Of a stretch of 64,000 nt of DNA, positions 29,583-58,398 are shown in pieces. Made by a program: the position numbers and the translations under genes. This stretch comes from an uncultured Methanomassiliicoccales archaeon. Lineage in GTDB: Archaea; Thermoplasmatota; Thermoplasmata; Methanomassiliicoccales; Methanomethylophilaceae. The stretch covers positions 313 through 64,312 of the forward strand of contig CAZWKY010000002.1 of the NCBI GenBank assembly GCA_964634095.1. The letters run 5' to 3'. The notes under the pieces were generated by a model. The model had not been told where the DNA came from and did no database searches. It saw nothing but the letters and a program-made list of their open reading frames with translations. Position 1 is the stretch's first letter. Each line of letters starts with the position of its first letter.

Positions 29583-29658
29583 GGGCTCGTGGTCTAGGGG
29601 TTATGACGTCGCCTTGACATGGCGGAGGTCGCCGGTTCAAATCCGGCCGGGCCCACCA
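29583..29658 (+). tRNA. tRNA-Val(GAC)
   Basis: Anticodon arm TCGCC-TTGACAT-GGCGG; CCA encoded; TATA box upstream. Confidence 0.97.
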
Positions 29659-29804
29659 GCTTTCCTCACTTTCGATTTCTTGTGTGTTATCACCGTTTCC
29701 CAATCTTCTGCGAATAGGGATGTTGCTTCTGATGTACGACCCTTCGGAACATGGGGTTCCCCATGACCCGAATACAAAATACAGTTCTGTATAAAACAAC
29801 CCGC

Positions 29805-29822
29805 GACTGGACAAATGTCTGG
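29805..29822. promoter_or_regulatory. Candidate operator GACTGGACAAATGTCTGG upstream of the alanine symporter
   Basis: Imperfect palindrome, near-identical to 45984-46001 upstream of glnA. Confidence 0.5.
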
Positions 29823-29966
29823 CCGTTTGCCCGTTGTATTTATAGTTTTCTTCGGTTCGTACGTCCAGAACGGATACACCTAAATACTATCCAGAACGTT
29901 GGACGCACCGCAACATCCGTGGATTCTTTAGAAGTTTGAAGCGGAAAACCATCGGAAAGGATACAA

Positions 29967-34278: not shown

Positions 34279-34752
34279 ATGAGCGAAGTGGTTTTCCACG
34301 AAAGACAACGCATGCTTCAGCCATGGGCGCTTATGGTACTGACCCTGGTGTTGGTCATACTGGAGGCGGTCACCCTCATGGATTACTTCGAGATCGTCGA
34401 TGTCGATGACGTCGACACCCTGTCCGTCTGTGTGGTCACCATCATAGTGGCCCTCGTCACCATCGGAGCGGTCTTCCTGAGACTGGATGTCACCGTCGAT
34501 GGCGAGTGTGTGACCATCAAGACCGTCGGCACCAGGAGGATCCCCCTGGCGGACATCGAAGAGGCCACCGTCCGTGACAGGGCCTATGCCGTACGCATGT
34601 TCGGAGGCTGGGGCATCAGGGTCTGGATCAAGGGCGTGGGTTATATCGCACCGGGCAACGACGGTGGCGTGGAGATCAGGGTGAAGGGTGCGAAGCACTC
34701 CATCATGATCACATCGATGGACCCCGAGGCATTACTGAGGGCCATCTCCTGA
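34279..34752 (+). CDS. Membrane protein with bacterial PH-like domain
   Basis: Two TM helices followed by RRIPLADIE and FGGWGIR. Confidence 0.65.
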   Translation: MSEVVFHERQRMLQPWALMVLTLVLVILEAVTLMDYFEIVDVDDVDTLSVCVVTIIVALVTIGAVFLRLDVTVDGECVTIKTVGTRRIPLADIEEATVRDRAYAVRMFGGWGIRVWIKGVGYIAPGNDGGVEIRVKGAKHSIMITSMDPEALLRAIS

Positions 34753-35289
34753 AACATCATCCGTGGGCGGGGACACGATGAACCCCACCGAATGGAGCTT
34801 CCTCTCCCCGCCCGCATCCTTCTTCGAATAACGTTCTATGTGCTGACCGAAGTTCTGTATCAGAACCTCCAGTTCCCTGTCCGTCGCATACACAGGCGCG
34901 GTCCAGTAGCCGAAGACCCCGTTGTAGGGATCCACCTTCCCGGGATACCTCAAAGCATACTCCCTGAACTGATTGGCGAATCCCACACAGAACGACATGA
35001 ACAGCACCGCGATGTCATCGGTCGAGGTATCGTTCGGATCGGGGCCGCACACCAGAGAACCCGACGGCGAATAGGTCTTCTCGACGGTTCCCCGCTTCTG
35101 CTGATAATCCACAACCTCCACGAACCCTTCCCTTTCCATCTTGTTGAGTATGCGGTACATGGTCGACCTCGGCGTATCCGGGTTGTTCTCACACAACCTC
35201 CTCACCGTGATGCGTTTCTCGCGAACGATGTCCAGGAGGATCTTGCTTGTGCGTGGGTCGATGAAGTACTTCAGAAGGCGGTCGTCCAT
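34732..35289 (-). CDS. Winged-helix (ArsR-like) transcriptional regulator
   Basis: FIDPRTSKILL..TVRRL..PRSTMYRILNKM..G.VEVV..RGTVEKTY. Confidence 0.8.
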   Translation of the reverse strand: MDDRLLKYFIDPRTSKILLDIVREKRITVRRLCENNPDTPRSTMYRILNKMEREGFVEVVDYQQKRGTVEKTYSPSGSLVCGPDPNDTSTDDIAVLFMSFCVGFANQFREYALRYPGKVDPYNGVFGYWTAPVYATDRELEVLIQNFGQHIERYSKKDAGGERKLHSVGFIVSPPTDDVSGDGPQ

Positions 35290-42329: not shown

Positions 42330-43679
42330 ATGGATAACTCCGTGTCATACGACCTCGAACACTACAGAAAACGTCTGGCGGAGAAGGACCTGGAGCGCGC
42401 CCTGCGTTCCTTCGGAGCCGTGTGCATCGTCGGACCCAAATACTGCGGAAAGACCTGGATGGGACTCCACGGGTCCGGAAGCCACTTCATCATGGGCGAC
42501 GAGAACGCATACGGCGTCAGCAACAAGGAGCTCGCCCGGTCCGATATCCGTATAGCCATGGAGGGAAAAAGGCCCCATCTCATAGATGAATGGCAGGAGG
42601 CCCCCAGGATCTGGGATGCCGTGAGGTCGGACATAGACCGCCACGGGGAGAAGGGCGCATACATCCTCACGGGATCCGCGACACCGAAGGTCGGACCGGA
42701 TGACAGACCGGTCCACAGCGGCACCGGCCGTATAGTCCGCGTCCACATGCACACCATGTCACTCTACGAGTCGGGGGACTCGACAGGTTCCGTCTCCCTG
42801 AAATCATTGATGGCGTCCGAACCTATGGGGCCGATCGACGAGGGCACGGACCTGGACCACCTTGTGGACCTCGTGATCTCCGGAGGATGGCCTGGGAACC
42901 TCGACCTGGACCTGGAGGACCGTGCCTTCGCGGTCAGAGGTTACCTGGAGTCGGTCATCAAGGATGCGTGCCATCTCGACAATGTACGCAGGAAGGAATC
43001 CTCGTTCTGGCTGGTGGTCAGATCACTGGCGAGGAACGAGAGCACACTTGCATCCATGTCGAAGGTCCATAAGGACACGGGCATACCATTGGAGAGGGAC
43101 GTCCCCCTGATCCTGGACGGCATGGAATCCGATACCGAGCCGGGATTGTCATATGATACGGTCACAGACTACGTGGATGTACTGAACAGACTGCATCTGT
43201 TGGAGGATCAGCCTGCATTCGACCCCAATCTGAGGTCCAGTGTCAGAGTCGGGAAGGTCCCCAAGAGGCATTTCACCGACCCGTCACTGGCAGTTGCCGC
43301 CCTGAGAGTGGGGAGGGAGAGGCTGATGAACGACCCGAACACGTTCGATTTCCTCTTCGAAGCCATGTGCGAGAGGGATCTGAGGATCTATGCGCAGAGC
43401 ATCGGCGCCAACCTGTTCCATTACCGCGATTCGTCCGGGATGGAGGTGGACGCCATAGTGGAACTGGAGAACGGCGCATGGGGTGCGTTCGAGATAAAAC
43501 TGGGTGCCAACAGGATAGACGAAGGGGCGGAGAACCTGTTGAGGTTCAGGAAATCACTGATAAGACGTGGTGCGGCGAGACTCCCCTCCGTCCTCTGCGT
43601 CATATGCGGTCTGACACAGTATGCGTACCGCCGCGAGGACGGAGTCTATGTCGTCCCCATAACATCCCTGGGACCCTGA
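42330..43679 (+). CDS. ATP-binding protein (AAA_14 + DUF4143)
   Basis: Motifs GPKYCGKT, LIDEWQ, ILTGS, KRHFTDPS, HYRD..EVD..FEIK. Confidence 0.92.
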   Translation: MDNSVSYDLEHYRKRLAEKDLERALRSFGAVCIVGPKYCGKTWMGLHGSGSHFIMGDENAYGVSNKELARSDIRIAMEGKRPHLIDEWQEAPRIWDAVRSDIDRHGEKGAYILTGSATPKVGPDDRPVHSGTGRIVRVHMHTMSLYESGDSTGSVSLKSLMASEPMGPIDEGTDLDHLVDLVISGGWPGNLDLDLEDRAFAVRGYLESVIKDACHLDNVRRKESSFWLVVRSLARNESTLASMSKVHKDTGIPLERDVPLILDGMESDTEPGLSYDTVTDYVDVLNRLHLLEDQPAFDPNLRSSVRVGKVPKRHFTDPSLAVAALRVGRERLMNDPNTFDFLFEAMCERDLRIYAQSIGANLFHYRDSSGMEVDAIVELENGAWGAFEIKLGANRIDEGAENLLRFRKSLIRRGAARLPSVLCVICGLTQYAYRREDGVYVVPITSLGP

Positions 43680-43723: not shown

Positions 43724-45907
43724 TCAGCGGATGAAGAGCAGTTCGCGGTACTTGGGCAGGGGCCACATGTCGTCGTCCACGATCATCTCGAGGGCGTCCA
43801 CATGCTCCCTTATCCTGGACAGGTACGGGACCACCCTGTCGTGGAACCCGATGGCCTTCGTACGCTCGCATCCGCACTCGAGGAGCTCGTCGCAGACCCC
43901 CTCCATCTCTATGGCCAGGGAACGCGCCTCGCTTGTGTGCACGGCGATGTCCTTGATTATCTGGATCTCACCGGTCGCGACCTGCCTGTACTCCTCAGGG
44001 GAGAAGATCTCCTTCATCTTGGCCACGTTGTCCAACAGGATGGACTGATACCTCGTCGCCACGGGCAGGATGTGGTTGGCGGTCAGGTCGGCCAGGACCC
44101 TGACCTCGATCTCGATCTTCTTGCAGTAGATCTCCCATTTGATCTCGTTCCTGGCCCTGAGCTCGGTCTCGGTCATGACGTTGGTGTCCTGGTAGATCGC
44201 GATGGTCTCGGGTGATGTGCAGACATCGAACACCAGGGGTGCACTGGTCTCGCAGTCCAGACCGCGCTCGGCGGCCTCGGCCTTCCACTCGTCGGAGTAC
44301 CCGTTACCGTCGAAGCAGACCTTCTGGCATGCCCTGTACGTCTCGCGGGTCTCGTCCAGGACGGCCTGCATGACAGGTGTGCCCGATTCTATCCTCTTGT
44401 CCACGGCCGCCTTGAACTTCTTCAGCTGATGGGCGGTGATGGTGTTGAGGACGGTGATGGCCGAGGCACAGTTGGCCGATGAGCCCACGGCCCTGAACTC
44501 GAACCTGTTGCCGGTGAACGCGAAGGGGGACGTCCTGTTCCTGTCGGTGTTGTCGATCAGGAGCTGGGGCACCTGGGGGATCCCGAGGCTGTATCCGCTC
44601 TTGCCGCTGATCTTGACCATGTCCTTGGAGTTCAGGAGCTCGTTGAAGGCGGCGGTGACCTGTGTCCCCAGGAACGATGATATGATCGCAGGGGGCGCCT
44701 CGTTGGCACCGAGCCTGTGTGCGTTGGTGGCGGTCAGGACGCAGGCCTTGAGCAGGGCGTTGTTGTCGTAGACGGCCTTGAGCACGTTTGCCATGAACGT
44801 CAGGAACCTGAGGTTCTCCTCGTCGGTCTTCCCGGGGGAGAGCAGGCCTATGCCGGAACCGGTGCCCAGGGACCAGTTGCAGTGCTTCCCGGACCCGTTG
44901 ACGCCCTCGAAGGGCTTCTCGTGGAAGAGGACCTTGAACCCGTGCTTCTCCGCGGTGCTCTTCATGAGGGCCATCAGGAGGAGGTTGTGGTCGTTGGCCA
45001 GGTTGGACTGTTCGAAGACCGGTGCGATCTCGAACTGATTGGGTGCGACCTCGTTGTGCCTGGTCTTGATGGGGATCGCCAGCTTGTAGCACTCGAACTC
45101 CAGGTCCTTCATGAACTCGATGACCCTTCCCGGGATCGACCCGAAGTAGTGGTCCTCCAGCTGCTGGTTCCTGGCGGAGTTGTGTCCAACGAGTGTCCTC
45201 TCGGCCATGATGAGATCGGGACGCTGGGCGTAGAGGGCGGCGTCCACCAGGAAGTACTCCTGCTCCCATCCCAGATAGGAGTAGACGAAGTCCTCCTCGA
45301 TGCCGAAGAACTTCAGGACCTCCGCGGCGGCCTTGGTGACGGCGGTCTCGGATTTGAGGAGGGGTGCCTTGAAATCCAGGGCCTCCCCTGTATATGATAT
45401 GAACACCGTGGGGATGCAGAGGCAGTCCCCCATGATGAATGCGGGCGATGACGGATCCCATGCCGTGTACCCCCTGGCCTCGAAGGTGTTCCTGAGGCCT
45501 CCGCTGGGGAACGATGATGCATCGGGCTCCTGCTGGCACAGCAGTTTGCCGGTGAACTTCTCGATGGATTCGCCCTTCCCGTAGGGTTCGGCAAAGGAGT
45601 CGTGCTTCTCCGCGGTCCCGCCGGTGAGGGGTTGGAACCAATGGGTGTAGTGGGTGGCGCCCATGTCCATGGCCCAGCGTTTCATCCCTGCGGCCACGTG
45701 CTCCGCGACCTCCCTGCTGAGCGTCACACCCTGCTCGATGGATTCATACACCTTCTGCCTGGTGTCGGATGAGAGGTACTTCCTCATATTCTTCCTGTTG
45801 AACACGTTGCAGCCGTAATATTCGGAAGTAGCACGAGCGGGAGGTACAGCGACCACCGTCTCCCTGACGAAGGCCTCCTCGACCGCTCTGAACCTGCTGT
45901 TGGACAT
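43724..45907 (-). CDS. glnA: Glutamine synthetase type III
   Basis: 727 aa; motifs HYTHWFQPLT, EPDASSFP.GG.R.TFEARGYT, RHNEVAP, DRNRTSPFAFTGNRFEFR. Confidence 0.95.
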   Translation of the reverse strand: MSNSRFRAVEEAFVRETVVAVPPARATSEYYGCNVFNRKNMRKYLSSDTRQKVYESIEQGVTLSREVAEHVAAGMKRWAMDMGATHYTHWFQPLTGGTAEKHDSFAEPYGKGESIEKFTGKLLCQQEPDASSFPSGGLRNTFEARGYTAWDPSSPAFIMGDCLCIPTVFISYTGEALDFKAPLLKSETAVTKAAAEVLKFFGIEEDFVYSYLGWEQEYFLVDAALYAQRPDLIMAERTLVGHNSARNQQLEDHYFGSIPGRVIEFMKDLEFECYKLAIPIKTRHNEVAPNQFEIAPVFEQSNLANDHNLLLMALMKSTAEKHGFKVLFHEKPFEGVNGSGKHCNWSLGTGSGIGLLSPGKTDEENLRFLTFMANVLKAVYDNNALLKACVLTATNAHRLGANEAPPAIISSFLGTQVTAAFNELLNSKDMVKISGKSGYSLGIPQVPQLLIDNTDRNRTSPFAFTGNRFEFRAVGSSANCASAITVLNTITAHQLKKFKAAVDKRIESGTPVMQAVLDETRETYRACQKVCFDGNGYSDEWKAEAAERGLDCETSAPLVFDVCTSPETIAIYQDTNVMTETELRARNEIKWEIYCKKIEIEVRVLADLTANHILPVATRYQSILLDNVAKMKEIFSPEEYRQVATGEIQIIKDIAVHTSEARSLAIEMEGVCDELLECGCERTKAIGFHDRVVPYLSRIREHVDALEMIVDDDMWPLPKYRELLFIR

Positions 45908-45983
45908 GTTTTTCCCGATTACACGTGCCCTACTTATACATTATCAGGGATAAATGAGATGAAAAATCAATGATTTCCAGATT

Positions 45984-46001
45984 GACTAGACAAATGTCTA
46001 A
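45984..46001. promoter_or_regulatory. Candidate operator GACTAGACAAATGTCTAA upstream of glnA
   Basis: TAGACA-AA-TGTCTA palindrome; matches 29805-29822. Confidence 0.5.
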
Positions 46002-46253
46002 TGATTCCCGCCCATCACCGTGAATGGACGGTGATATCCCCTGCAACGGACCCCGTTTCTACGGACATCGGCACTGTGTCCGGGACATCACCGTCTCTGT
46101 CTGAGACAAGCCGGAAAACGGCCATAACGGCAATCACACACCAGAAACAGCCGTCGGACATACCTTAGGTAAACGGCGTTACCACGAAAAACCCGCGGAA
46201 TGTTCAATCGCTCTCAAATACTGAGAATGTGGATTAGACTGTTAGGGAAAGAG

Positions 46254-47186
46254 ATGGCATTCAAGCTCTTCAAGAACGGAGATGACCTGTACACCCAGGG
46301 AGACGAGCTGATCAAACGGGGGGAGTACGCCAAAGCGCGCGACATCCTCCAGAAATCGATAGACAAGGAAGGTGGCATCGACGATGTGGCCGCGGTCAAG
46401 GTCGCACTCATCGACCTCTCATCGCACCTCACGCATCCGGGGGCCTACAGGAACCTCAGGTCCAAACTGAAGGAGGTCTCCCAGAAGGACCTGGAGTTCG
46501 GACTCACATCCTTCGACCGTGACGAACTCATCACGGAATGCGAACTCACGGAGGAGAAGCTGGAGATCATCGGCGATGTGGAGGACGACAGCGAGAAGGC
46601 GGATGCCGCCGAGGCACTGCAGAACCTCGCACTGAGGTACCAGTCCGAGATCGGCGACAGGCACCTGATCGTCCTGGAGATCTTCAAGAACGACACCACC
46701 GTCACCGGTATGACCGAGTTCTACAACCTCATGGCCGTGTCCTACGAATACAAGTCGGACGCCGTCGTATGGGACAACCCCTCCCAGGCGGCGGAATACC
46801 AGCAGATCGCCATGGGATACAGGCAGCAGAACGGACAGTCCGGTGAATCCAACCTGGCCAAGATCAGGTCCTACTCCTGCACGAGCAAATGCTGGCTCTG
46901 CGGAAGGGTCGCCACAGGGGAGGGGATACACTTCTTCAGCGCACCCGCGGACGTGTCCCCCGCCCTGGACAAGGGCGACACCGGGATCGCCAGATCCAAG
47001 CCCGAGGGCGACCACCAGATCTACATCTGCCGCGCCTGCTACTCCGCGGTCTCCAACCGTTCGGACGAGATCGCCCAGAGGTACTACGACAGGGCCATGG
47101 CGGAGATGGCGGAGATGGAGGCCAGGATCCAGGCGGAGATCGCCGCGCTTCAGACACAGATATCCTTCGCAAGGATGAACAGATAA
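46254..47186 (+). CDS. Helical (TPR-like) protein with C-terminal Zn finger and coiled coil
   Basis: Helical repeats, CWLCG...ICRAC, heptad-rich C-terminus. Start trimmed to MAFKLF. Confidence 0.7.
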   Translation: MAFKLFKNGDDLYTQGDELIKRGEYAKARDILQKSIDKEGGIDDVAAVKVALIDLSSHLTHPGAYRNLRSKLKEVSQKDLEFGLTSFDRDELITECELTEEKLEIIGDVEDDSEKADAAEALQNLALRYQSEIGDRHLIVLEIFKNDTTVTGMTEFYNLMAVSYEYKSDAVVWDNPSQAAEYQQIAMGYRQQNGQSGESNLAKIRSYSCTSKCWLCGRVATGEGIHFFSAPADVSPALDKGDTGIARSKPEGDHQIYICRACYSAVSNRSDEIAQRYYDRAMAEMAEMEARIQAEIAALQTQISFARMNR

Positions 47187-47187
47187 A

Positions 47188-48732
47188 ATGGACCAACTGG
47201 TAGAGCTCAGATGCAAATACTGCGGGGCCCCGCTGGACAGGAAGGATGTGGAGTCCGATTCGCCGTACGTGACCTGTCAGTGCTGCGGGACCAGCCAGCA
47301 GAGGGTCGATGCCAAGGCGTACATGGAGCAGATGATGGGCCAGATCCAGTCATGGATCAGCAAGGCCATCCCCGGGGGCTTCTCCCTGTCGCAGCAGGAG
47401 AACGTGGACCCCATCGCCAGGCACAACATCTACATCAACAACGTCAAGCCGTCCATCGAACTGGAGATCAGGGACTTCCGTTTCGCCCTAAACTCCGTGA
47501 TATCGTCACCGTTGGTGGTCCTGCCGTTCACCAAGGGCAGCCCCGTGAAATCCAAACACTCGTCATCCAGCGTGTTCGAGTTCAATGCCAAGCTGAAGAG
47601 CATCGAACCGCTGGCGGTGGACACCGGTGACAGGGCCTCGATCAAGGAGGCGGAGGACATGTCCATGGCCTACGCACTCATAGTGAACAACTCCCAGCTC
47701 CTGACGGACACCACGCCCGGACGTTTCGCCCTGATGTCCAAGAACTTCAGGGAATCGGCGGAGGCCATCGGGAAGTGCAAGGGGTACGAACCCCTGGTCG
47801 GAAGGCTGAACGCCCTCTCCGAGGTGTGCACAGCATCGGACATGGTGCTCAACGGGGACCACCTGGGATGCGTCACCAAGGCGGAGACCGCCATAGACAT
47901 GCTCCAGAAGGCCAAGGGGGAGATCCTGAGGAACCCCAAGCTGGCCATGATGATCCGTGCCGTTGACCTGGAGATCGGGCAGTCCAAGGCGCTGAAGAAC
48001 GTGGCGGAGATGTCCGTCAGCGGTACGAACGGTGATGCCCTGGGCACACTGGAGGTCATGAACAAGCTCGGAAGCCTGAGCTACCCCTCCGAACAGTCCT
48101 GGAACCCGCTCCTCCGCAAGAAGGACCGCAACTACGAGCTGTTCAGCTATGTGGAGGGGATCGTCACCGCACGCAGCGAGGGCACCCTCCCGATCTGCCC
48201 CGGGGACGGGGACATACTGTACCCGTTCTGGGATGTGGACCTGAAGTACAACTTCACAACGGGGTCGTTATTCTCCAAGAAGGTCGTGGAGGTGACCGAG
48301 GACATCCTCATACCCGCCACGTTCACGCTCAGTGCGGAGGCCCTGAGGAATCCGCGCAGGGGACTGACCGACATATTCTCCGTGGTCCCCGAGAGCTCGA
48401 TATTCGAGAGGATGAAGGGCGAACAGGACAGCATCAGCGGTGGCGAGGGCATAGGCAGGCTCGCGGACTCCGCATCCGAGAACCGCCCCGGCACCAGGGC
48501 GGTCGTCCTGCCACTGTCCACCAAGACGGAGGCGACCAGACTCGTCGAGGAGTACCTCAGACAGAGCTGCTCCACCAACTCCAAACTGAAACTCAGCAAG
48601 CCGTACGTCAAGAGGCTCATCTACATCCCCTGCCGCACAGGGGTGAACGGCATCTCGCTTCCGAGTGCCTTCGACAGGCTCACGCCTGCGATCCTCTCCG
48701 ACCCGGCCCTTGACAGCATCATAAAGATATGA
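47188..48732 (+). CDS. Zinc-ribbon-containing hypothetical protein
   Basis: N-terminal CKYCGAPL..CQCCGT; 514 aa; starts 1 bp after the upstream stop. Confidence 0.75.
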   Translation: MDQLVELRCKYCGAPLDRKDVESDSPYVTCQCCGTSQQRVDAKAYMEQMMGQIQSWISKAIPGGFSLSQQENVDPIARHNIYINNVKPSIELEIRDFRFALNSVISSPLVVLPFTKGSPVKSKHSSSSVFEFNAKLKSIEPLAVDTGDRASIKEAEDMSMAYALIVNNSQLLTDTTPGRFALMSKNFRESAEAIGKCKGYEPLVGRLNALSEVCTASDMVLNGDHLGCVTKAETAIDMLQKAKGEILRNPKLAMMIRAVDLEIGQSKALKNVAEMSVSGTNGDALGTLEVMNKLGSLSYPSEQSWNPLLRKKDRNYELFSYVEGIVTARSEGTLPICPGDGDILYPFWDVDLKYNFTTGSLFSKKVVEVTEDILIPATFTLSAEALRNPRRGLTDIFSVVPESSIFERMKGEQDSISGGEGIGRLADSASENRPGTRAVVLPLSTKTEATRLVEEYLRQSCSTNSKLKLSKPYVKRLIYIPCRTGVNGISLPSAFDRLTPAILSDPALDSIIKI

Positions 48733-57726: not shown

Positions 57727-58398
57727 GTGACCATGACTGAGAGACGTGTCAGAGGGAAGGCCGAGAAGACGGCGGAACTGAGACGTCGCATCATGGACGT
57801 GTCCGTGGAGCTCTTCTTCGAGAACGGATACGAGAAGACCACCACGCGCCAGATCCTCCAGAGGGCGGGCATCCTCAACGGCAGCCTGTACAACATCTAT
57901 CACGGCAAGGAGGAGATCTTCGCCGACATCGTCGAGGGGGCATTGGACGATTCCATCAGGGCATCGGAGAGGTTCATGAAGGACCCCACGTTCCTGGACA
58001 GGATCGGATTCCCCATAATCCTGGAGATATACGCATCGTTCAGATCACCCCGCATAGCCGAGTTCCTGTCCATCGCCCACCGCAAATGGGACATCATGCA
58101 GAGGGTCTGCGACCTGATGAAGAGATGGATCGAGGACAAGGACACGGAACACCTCATCGACACGGGGTCCGACGAGTTCAGGGTCCGCATGTACATGTGC
58201 CTTGGAGCCATGGGGAACATCATCGAGGCCATATACCGTGACCCGGAGTCCATATCGGAGAAGGATGCCATCATCGTCCTGGTGACGATGCTCCTGGAGG
58301 TGTTCGGCCTGCCGTCCGACGGGGTGGAGGCCAAGACAGGGGAGATCTTCAGGGCCATAGACGGCAACGACATCGTGATCTGCGGCATCCATCTGTGA
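57727..58398 (+). CDS. TetR/AcrR-family transcriptional regulator
   Basis: ELFFENGYEKTTTRQI..AGI.NGSLYNIY..KEEIF. Confidence 0.92.
   Translation: MTMTERRVRGKAEKTAELRRRIMDVSVELFFENGYEKTTTRQILQRAGILNGSLYNIYHGKEEIFADIVEGALDDSIRASERFMKDPTFLDRIGFPIILEIYASFRSPRIAEFLSIAHRKWDIMQRVCDLMKRWIEDKDTEHLIDTGSDEFRVRMYMCLGAMGNIIEAIYRDPESISEKDAIIVLVTMLLEVFGLPSDGVEAKTGEIFRAIDGNDIVICGIHL

Follow-up and report, generated by a model that had tools for sequence, protein, structure and literature searches.

A conserved palindrome distinct from the NrpR box as probable operator of a nitrogen-assimilation regulon in Methanomethylophilaceae

In Methanococcus maripaludis and Methanosarcina mazei, the regulator NrpR reportedly uses the operator GGAA-N6-TTCC. 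TrmBL1/Tgr of Thermococcales is said to recognize the TGM motif TATCAC-N5-GTGATA, and TrmBL1 activates from sites upstream of the BRE/TATA and represses from downstream or overlapping ones. The Lrp/AsnC regulators include Ptr2 (M. jannaschii) and, in Halobacterium salinarum, an Lrp that reportedly activates glnA, and archaeal activation of the Lrp/AsnC type proceeds by recruitment of TBP/TFB. In bacteria, AmtR of Corynebacterium glutamicum, a TetR family member, is a pure repressor with the box CTAT-N6-ATAG. Methanomethylophilaceae, methyl-reducing methanogens of the human gut and rumen, harbor a bacterial-type glutamine synthetase (GSIII), whereas model methanogens possess an NrpR-controlled GSI. 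A search of a paper library returned no paper containing the motif string described below, and none on the regulation of nitrogen metabolism in Methanomethylophilaceae.

The promoters compared here displayed no NrpR, AmtR, TnrA/GlnR or NtcA box at a conserved position. The NrpR box was absent from all 81 GSIII promoters, all 56 agcS promoters and the window (i.e., the whole 64-kb stretch of DNA that was analysed), in line with the original prediction of an operator other than that of NrpR. The AmtR box and the TnrA/GlnR (MerR-type) box TGTNA-N7-TNACA were likewise found in none of the 81 GSIII promoters. The NtcA (CRP family) box was obtained at background level and with no conserved position (GTA-N8-TAC in 4 and TGTA-N8-TACA in 1 of the 81).

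Instead, the window harbored two copies of another palindrome, one upstream of the alanine symporter gene agcS and one upstream of the GSIII gene (Table 1). Both 18-mers of the original prediction, GACTGGACAAATGTCTGG (29805-29822, agcS side) and GACTAGACAAATGTCTAA (45984-46001, GSIII side), were recovered exactly at these coordinates, and recomputation gave the same identity of 15/16 over their first 16 positions. They lie 145-162 nt 5' of the agcS ATG (29967, + strand) and 77-94 nt 5' of the GSIII ATG (45907, - strand), respectively. GSIII is encoded on the minus strand, a point that the prediction had left unstated, and the two copies are oppositely oriented relative to their own genes; the GACT flank that they have in common therefore falls outside the motif, at a place where the family consensus is AAT/ATT. 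The pattern RGACAWWTGTCY occurred exactly twice in the window for 0.04 expected, and none of 100 shuffles reached two, the pattern having been picked post hoc and conservation being the real test. Two places in 64 kb that agree at 15/16 positions are by themselves unremarkable; the significance here comes from conservation. TATA-like boxes were present downstream of both copies as predicted (TATTTATA for agcS, TGTATAAG for GSIII). The second palindromes, proposed as a paired feature of the two promoters, were not conserved and proved limited to the window or to a subclade: ATACAG-TT-CTGTAT (29779-29792) occurred in the window only, the homologous promoter of locus L089 having none, and AAATCA-N-TGATTT (45964-45976) recurred only in a small subclade (L029, L030), where it belongs to a T-rich box.

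Table 1. Location of the operator copies and associated features in the window (coordinates) and in related loci (L-numbers).
Feature	Position	Strand	Sequence or score	Remarks
GSIII gene, type III glutamine synthetase, 727 aa	43724..45907	-		Pfam GSIII_N, Gln-synt_C, Gln-synt_C-ter; 80 orthologous loci
Proximal BRE/TATA of GSIII	45929..45945	-	window GATAATGTATAAGTAGG, relatives cGAAAnnTTTATA	conserved block
T-rich box	45956..45969	-	TGATTTTTCATCTC (gene orientation)	second conserved block, profile +28 to +36
Main operator, GSIII promoter	45986..46001	-	TTAGACATTTGTCTAG (gene orientation)	best PWM match and footprint
Degenerate operator copy, agcS promoter	29807..29822	+	CTGGACAAATGTCTGG	core GGACAAATGTCT at 29809-29820
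agcS TATA box	29838..29845	+	TATTTATA	read from sequence; kept in L089
agcS 5' leader	29870..29966	+		nearly identical in L089
agcS, sodium:alanine symporter gene, 474 aa	29967..31391	+		Pfam Na_Ala_symp, E = 9e-136
gdhA site after gltB	L151/L153		18.9-19.0 bits	
gdhA site after UbiA gene	L158/L159		26.5 bits	
gdhA site after TtuA	L160/L161		14.3 bits	
gdhA site after carB	L162/L163		11.4 bits	

Conservation was assessed over 166 related loci (about 1.2 Mb; L-numbers designate loci of this sample). GSIII was represented by one genome per species (80 loci, all from Methanomethylophilaceae/Methanomassiliicoccales MAGs, 65-99% protein identity), and 66 of these 80 loci displayed TTAGACANNTGTCTAA with at most 2 mismatches, starting mostly 77-94 nt 5' of the ATG (119-126 nt in one clade). 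The consensus motif is TTAGACA-WW-TGTCTAA (16 bases). In a 20-nt weight matrix (PWM) built from 53 unique GSIII sites, TAGA and TCTA were invariant around a W-W centre and minor variation was symmetric; both central orientations (AAAT and ATTT) occurred relative to the gene, and the PWM was itself symmetric. The GSIII site was the top match in the window with this PWM (25.2 bits) and also ranked first (23.4 bits) with a PWM derived only from non-GSIII sites of other genomes. It contains a perfect 14-bp palindrome, TAGACAAATGTCTA (45987-46000), centred 86 nt 5' of the ATG.

The canonical motif was absent at GSIII in lineages L018, L042, L045, L047, L052, L056, L150 and L154. The lineage of L150 has carA, pyrG, GSIII, gltB and amt in one cluster. 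In L150, the spacer between carA and pyrG (850-1010) and the promoter of GSIII (2610-2810) have TGTCTGAAATCCGACAA in common. This string, which was not seen in the spacers of L154, may represent an operator in rearranged form (TGTC-N8-GACA) or be bound by another factor.

An information profile anchored on the palindrome was near its maximum from -9 to +9 (18 columns), while the flanking columns were mostly near zero, except for a T-rich box centred at +31 and a BRE/TATA element (cGAAAnnTTTATA) at about +57. The T-rich box, whose centre lies 31 bp downstream of the GSIII palindrome centre and where PWM similarity peaked at +27/+31, could serve as an auxiliary half-site or else be a weak TATA box. 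At the same position, L028/L074, L058-L061 and L155 hold a recognisable second operator copy 30-31 bp away from the first. In most loci, the spacing between the BRE/TATA block and the ATG is fixed; in the window, TGTATAAG (~45932-45939) lies ~57 bp downstream of the palindrome centre (45993.5). With a TATA centre only about 27-28 nt from the ATG, the mRNA should be leaderless or nearly so. In metatranscriptomes, GSIII contigs (from a strain ~96% identical) stop at 45888/45893, just within the ORF, the promoter region is mostly uncovered, and the palindrome interval is essentially uncovered by RNA contigs. This coverage fits promoter DNA upstream of a transcript start near the GSIII ATG.

In the sample analysed, strong copies of the motif were associated with nitrogen genes and with one non-coding RNA (ncRNA). 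Among the first loci, covering 795 kb, 82 matches reached at least 9 bits, and all fell in four places: in the GSIII promoter, as second copies at a greater distance 5' of GSIII, 5' of agcS (L086, L090), and 5' of a GC-rich non-coding stretch next to agcS (the ncRNA; L099-L102). Over 1.17 Mb of related DNA, all 107 matches of at least 9 bits were upstream of GSIII, gdhA, agcS or the ncRNA and none elsewhere, in a non-random sample gathered via GSIII, agcS, gltB and gdhA and biased to these genes. Roughly 1000 other genes of this biased sample had no strong match, and flanks of 21-24 kb had strong sites only upstream of the same four targets. These figures stand against the background frequency that would be expected of a chance motif, and the enrichment at nitrogen genes anticipated in the original prediction was recovered at GSIII (followed by gltB in most relatives), at gdhA, at other agcS genes and at amtB-glnK. 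None of the three refuting outcomes named in that prediction (lack of conservation in orthologous promoters, lack of enrichment at nitrogen genes, background frequency) was obtained in this sample.

Sites of 11-26 bits were found at gdhA in 4 of 5 genomic contexts (Table 1), starting 150-193 nt before the ATG, and most were followed by a weaker copy 32-44 bp further on; gdhA of L156 had no copy. The amtB-glnK operon of Methanomethylophilus alvi (P0307) carried GATTAGACATTCGTCTAATT (26.2 bits), a match found after the 1.17-Mb sample, which predates the amt loci. We consider it probable that the palindrome is the operator of a symmetric factor controlling a nitrogen-assimilation regulon in Methanomethylophilaceae. 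This regulon would comprise GSIII(-gltB), gdhA, amtB-glnK and agcS, plus the ncRNA in one rumen lineage, and nitrogen status would be its signal. In the window, an AAA_14/DUF4143 ATPase gene (42330-43679) was observed at the place of the gltB (glutamate synthase large subunit) that directly follows GSIII in most relatives, and GSIII is therefore not part of a GS-GOGAT operon here.

The centres of the half-sites TTAGACA and TGTCTAA are separated by 9 bp, about one helical turn. This spacing, the dyad symmetry and the lack of a fixed orientation indicate a homodimeric DNA-binding protein. Second sites lie 30-32 bp away in L160 as well as in L028/L074, L058-L061 and L155, and 41-44 bp away in L009-type loci, L151/L153, L158 and L162; averaged PWM similarity displayed weak peaks at +27/+31 and -41. 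Such phasing points to cooperative binding along a single helix face, and the factor is most likely homodimeric and cooperatively binding as judged from these sites. At GSIII in the window, its high-affinity target would be the copy lying 57 bp 5' of the proximal TATA; a weak auxiliary element abuts the BRE, three helical turns downstream of the palindrome. At agcS it would bind a low-affinity copy, and both window sites lie at positions typical of archaeal activators.

Whether bound protein would activate or repress probably depends on position, and a site placed over the core promoter should lead to repression. In M. alvi amtB-glnK, the TATA-like GCTATATTGATATAT lies directly upstream of the site and TAATTAAAAT directly downstream, followed by a strong Shine-Dalgarno sequence, and the site overlaps the core promoter under either TATA reading, a placement at odds with a purely activating factor. 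For the two window sites, activation or cooperative recruitment is an evenly balanced proposition in our judgment. A TrmBL1/Tgr-like position-dependent regulator would, by analogy, reconcile upstream sites with core-overlapping ones. TATA assignments are backed by transcript ends at GSIII and the ncRNA only.

The main rival is a pure repressor acting on distal promoters. Following NrpR/AmtR logic at every promoter, it would be bound in nitrogen plenty and released under limitation, e.g., by 2-oxoglutarate; at GSIII, gdhA and agcS, it would either shut off a distal nitrogen-regulated promoter or wrap the promoter via phased sites. We hold this to be a serious possibility that falls somewhat short of probable, and the same grade applies to repression at the two window sites, whether via a distal promoter or by multi-site wrapping. 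A single repressor for all assimilation genes is physiologically the simplest arrangement, and the core-overlapping operator of M. alvi amtB-glnK speaks for it. At gdhA and the ncRNA, a TATA-like AT-rich stretch abuts the palindrome, so that the proximal half-site would occupy the position of the BRE, and gdhA of L160 has an additional GGACATTTGTCC at the start of its leader. Gut metatranscriptomes, from an ammonium-rich habitat, are also compatible with repression: agcS is silent and GSIII starts only at the proximal promoter.

The best-conserved sites, those of GSIII, nevertheless lie at a conserved distance of 57 bp upstream of the only TATA box that matches transcript ends, and in the window the DNA upstream of the GSIII site is GC-rich with no abutting TATA. 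Similarly, the centre of the agcS palindrome (29814.5) lies 27 bp upstream of the centre of the only TATA box of that promoter, with no overlap of BRE/TATA, and the 5' end of the ncRNA fits a TATA ~77 bp downstream of its operator. These positions speak against a universal repressor.

A second alternative concerns agcS, where the copy could be a chance likeness, leaving only the GSIII copy functional in this genome and no co-regulation here. The agcS copy violates the invariant A in each half-site (TGGACA, TGTCTG) and reached only 5.1 bits with the GSIII-derived PWM. A score like that of the agcS copy with the non-GSIII PWM was obtained somewhere in 64 kb in 32% of shuffles, roughly once per 190 kb, and the GACT flank in common with the GSIII copy would be coincidental given the opposite orientations to the genes. 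The nearest AgcS orthologues (L081-L085, L131, L135) had no operator copy either; there, agcS directly follows tRNA-Val after a gap of ~70 nt, for a spacer of 308 nt in the window.

Against chance, the agcS copy was second in the window with both matrices, at a clear distance from the third match (5.1 vs -1.5 bits with the GSIII PWM, 10.7 vs 5.5 bits with the non-GSIII PWM), and its distance from the TATA is of the activator type. By proportion, the probability of such a score within the 300-nt agcS spacer is about 0.002. The TGGACA half-site is also present in gdhA sites. Locus L089 keeps the core as ATAGACATCTGTCTGG at an equal distance from the TATA, although the spacer between them has diverged. 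Strong copies occur in independent agcS lineages (L090, 21.6 bits; L086, 12.9 bits) and weak ones in L104-107 (6.9 bits), L087 and L113, with 4 independent matches of at least 5 bits in 15 kb of agcS upstream regions vs at most 4 in the remaining ~0.85 Mb. A chance likeness appears unlikely on these grounds, and the agcS copy can be taken as functional with good, if not full, confidence from its sequence context.

The promoter and leader of the window agcS (region 29583-29966) have their counterpart in L089, a member of another agcS clade; the two leaders are nearly identical, although only 64% identity was found between the AgcS proteins. The window promoter looks like an exchanged promoter module. 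In most agcS homologues, the leader measures 80-100 nt and has a hairpin located at the Shine-Dalgarno sequence; CTATCC...CCGCACAtGGGAG is common to some of them. The leader is a candidate cis-regulatory RNA, and neither it nor the agcS spacer matched an Rfam family. The gene itself was uncovered in metatranscriptomes containing the organism. In another agcS clade (L091-L095, L099-L102, L108), a different palindrome, TACGAAAtTTCGTA, is repeated 2-4 times directly upstream of the TATA, which suggests a second, unrelated regulator for agcS transporters.

It is very improbable that the palindrome serves the divergent gene pair beyond it rather than GSIII. This pair (46254-48732, + strand) encodes proteins of 310 and 514 aa, is the commonest upstream neighbour of GSIII among relatives and is transcribed, yet the distance between motif and GSIII ATG is kept and the motif persists with GSIII in at least 12 loci with other neighbours. 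Divergent transcripts begin at 46201-46253, over 200 bp away from it, and the motif is present at gdhA, amtB and agcS, where the pair is absent. That the palindrome is not bound by protein at all, as an RNA hairpin or terminator, a mobile-element end or a restriction-type palindrome, is hardly credible: it is a perfect inverted repeat, but its arms are 2 nt apart, making a hairpin loop impossible, it is not followed by a T-run, it lies in an essentially untranscribed region, and it occurs as a single copy per promoter at fixed promoter positions rather than dispersed.

Several features of this side of the locus were noted. The 310-aa/514-aa pair is transcribed more strongly than GSIII, and a small membrane protein gene follows it in many relatives. 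The 514-aa protein has an N-terminal zinc ribbon, and sequence comparison with Pfam, NCBIfam and PDB gave no match for either protein. Just past the palindrome, as seen from GSIII, an 8-bp stem-loop (ATCACCGT GAATGG ACGGTGAT, 46012-46040) was observed, with a similar sequence showing several differences in the 99% strain L001.

Candidates for the regulator itself were sought near GSIII and in the window. The 310-aa divergent neighbour was rejected, as its predicted structure (pLDDT 83) comprised TPR-like repeats, a zinc ribbon and a coiled coil with no match to a DNA-binding fold. A NikR-like gene was also set aside, adjoining GSIII in two loci only. No candidate was found among the clustered neighbours of GSIII. 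In the window, the wHTH gene (34732-35289) and the TetR gene (57727-58398) had no copy of the motif, and no nrpR-like gene was seen among the ORFs scanned.

In one rumen lineage of Methanomethylophilaceae (L099-L102, L138-L147), a GC-rich non-coding RNA of ~720 nt was observed between an acetyltransferase gene and agcS. It extends from about 549-555 to an oligo-T at 1272-1282 in L101, and a strong operator copy (21-27 bits) precedes its 5' end by ~100 nt. Coverage in rumen metatranscriptomes was 390-900-fold, vs 5-7-fold for the upstream flanking gene. The RNA displayed compensatory changes between species and repeated CCGGGGATGACCCGG motifs that are K-turn-like. It had no Rfam match even at E<=1, and no homologue was found in the window or in the other loci.

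The distribution of the motif supports an archaeal nitrogen regulon whose operator is new. More tentatively, and with less than even confidence, we propose an undescribed master regulator unrelated to NrpR that would act as position-dependent activator and repressor at TTAGACA-WW-TGTCTAA and would, besides GSIII-GOGAT, GDH, AmtB-GlnK and AgcS, also control the ~720-nt structured RNA; if true, gut and rumen methanogens would have in this RNA an RNA arm of their nitrogen control. The operator marks this extremely abundant RNA as a possible regulon member. It could be used as bait for fishing out the regulator (e.g., with ATTAGACATTTGTCTAAT), would allow the prediction of nitrogen-responsive genes in hundreds of uncultured genomes, and makes it possible to test, in archaea, activation and repression that depend on site position.

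Compared with the known systems, the likeness to NrpR lies in an archaeal palindromic operator common to glnA, amtB-glnK and alanine uptake, often with more than one operator per promoter. The two differ in the operator sequence, in the target glutamine synthetase, which is of type III here and not GSI-alpha, and in placement, most sites lying upstream of the BRE/TATA rather than over the transcription start; the NrpR-type position (overlapping or downstream of the TATA or the start) was found only at M. alvi amtB-glnK and at neither window site. AmtR has nearly the same regulon content (amtB-glnK, glnA, gltBD, gdh) under one palindromic operator, with a different box. Lrp/AsnC regulators are similar in their palindromes of 13-17 bp with an A/T centre, and their helically phased sites upstream of the BRE/TATA may have a counterpart in the auxiliary sites described above. 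No Lrp-family gene is linked to the motif here, and assignment to this family would be a guess by analogy from site geometry. TrmBL1/Tgr differs in motif, pathway (sugar metabolism) and lineage, and its position-dependent effect is only presumed for the present factor; it would nonetheless be similar in that the position of the site relative to the BRE/TATA appears to vary by promoter, being upstream at GSIII and agcS and overlapping at amtB.
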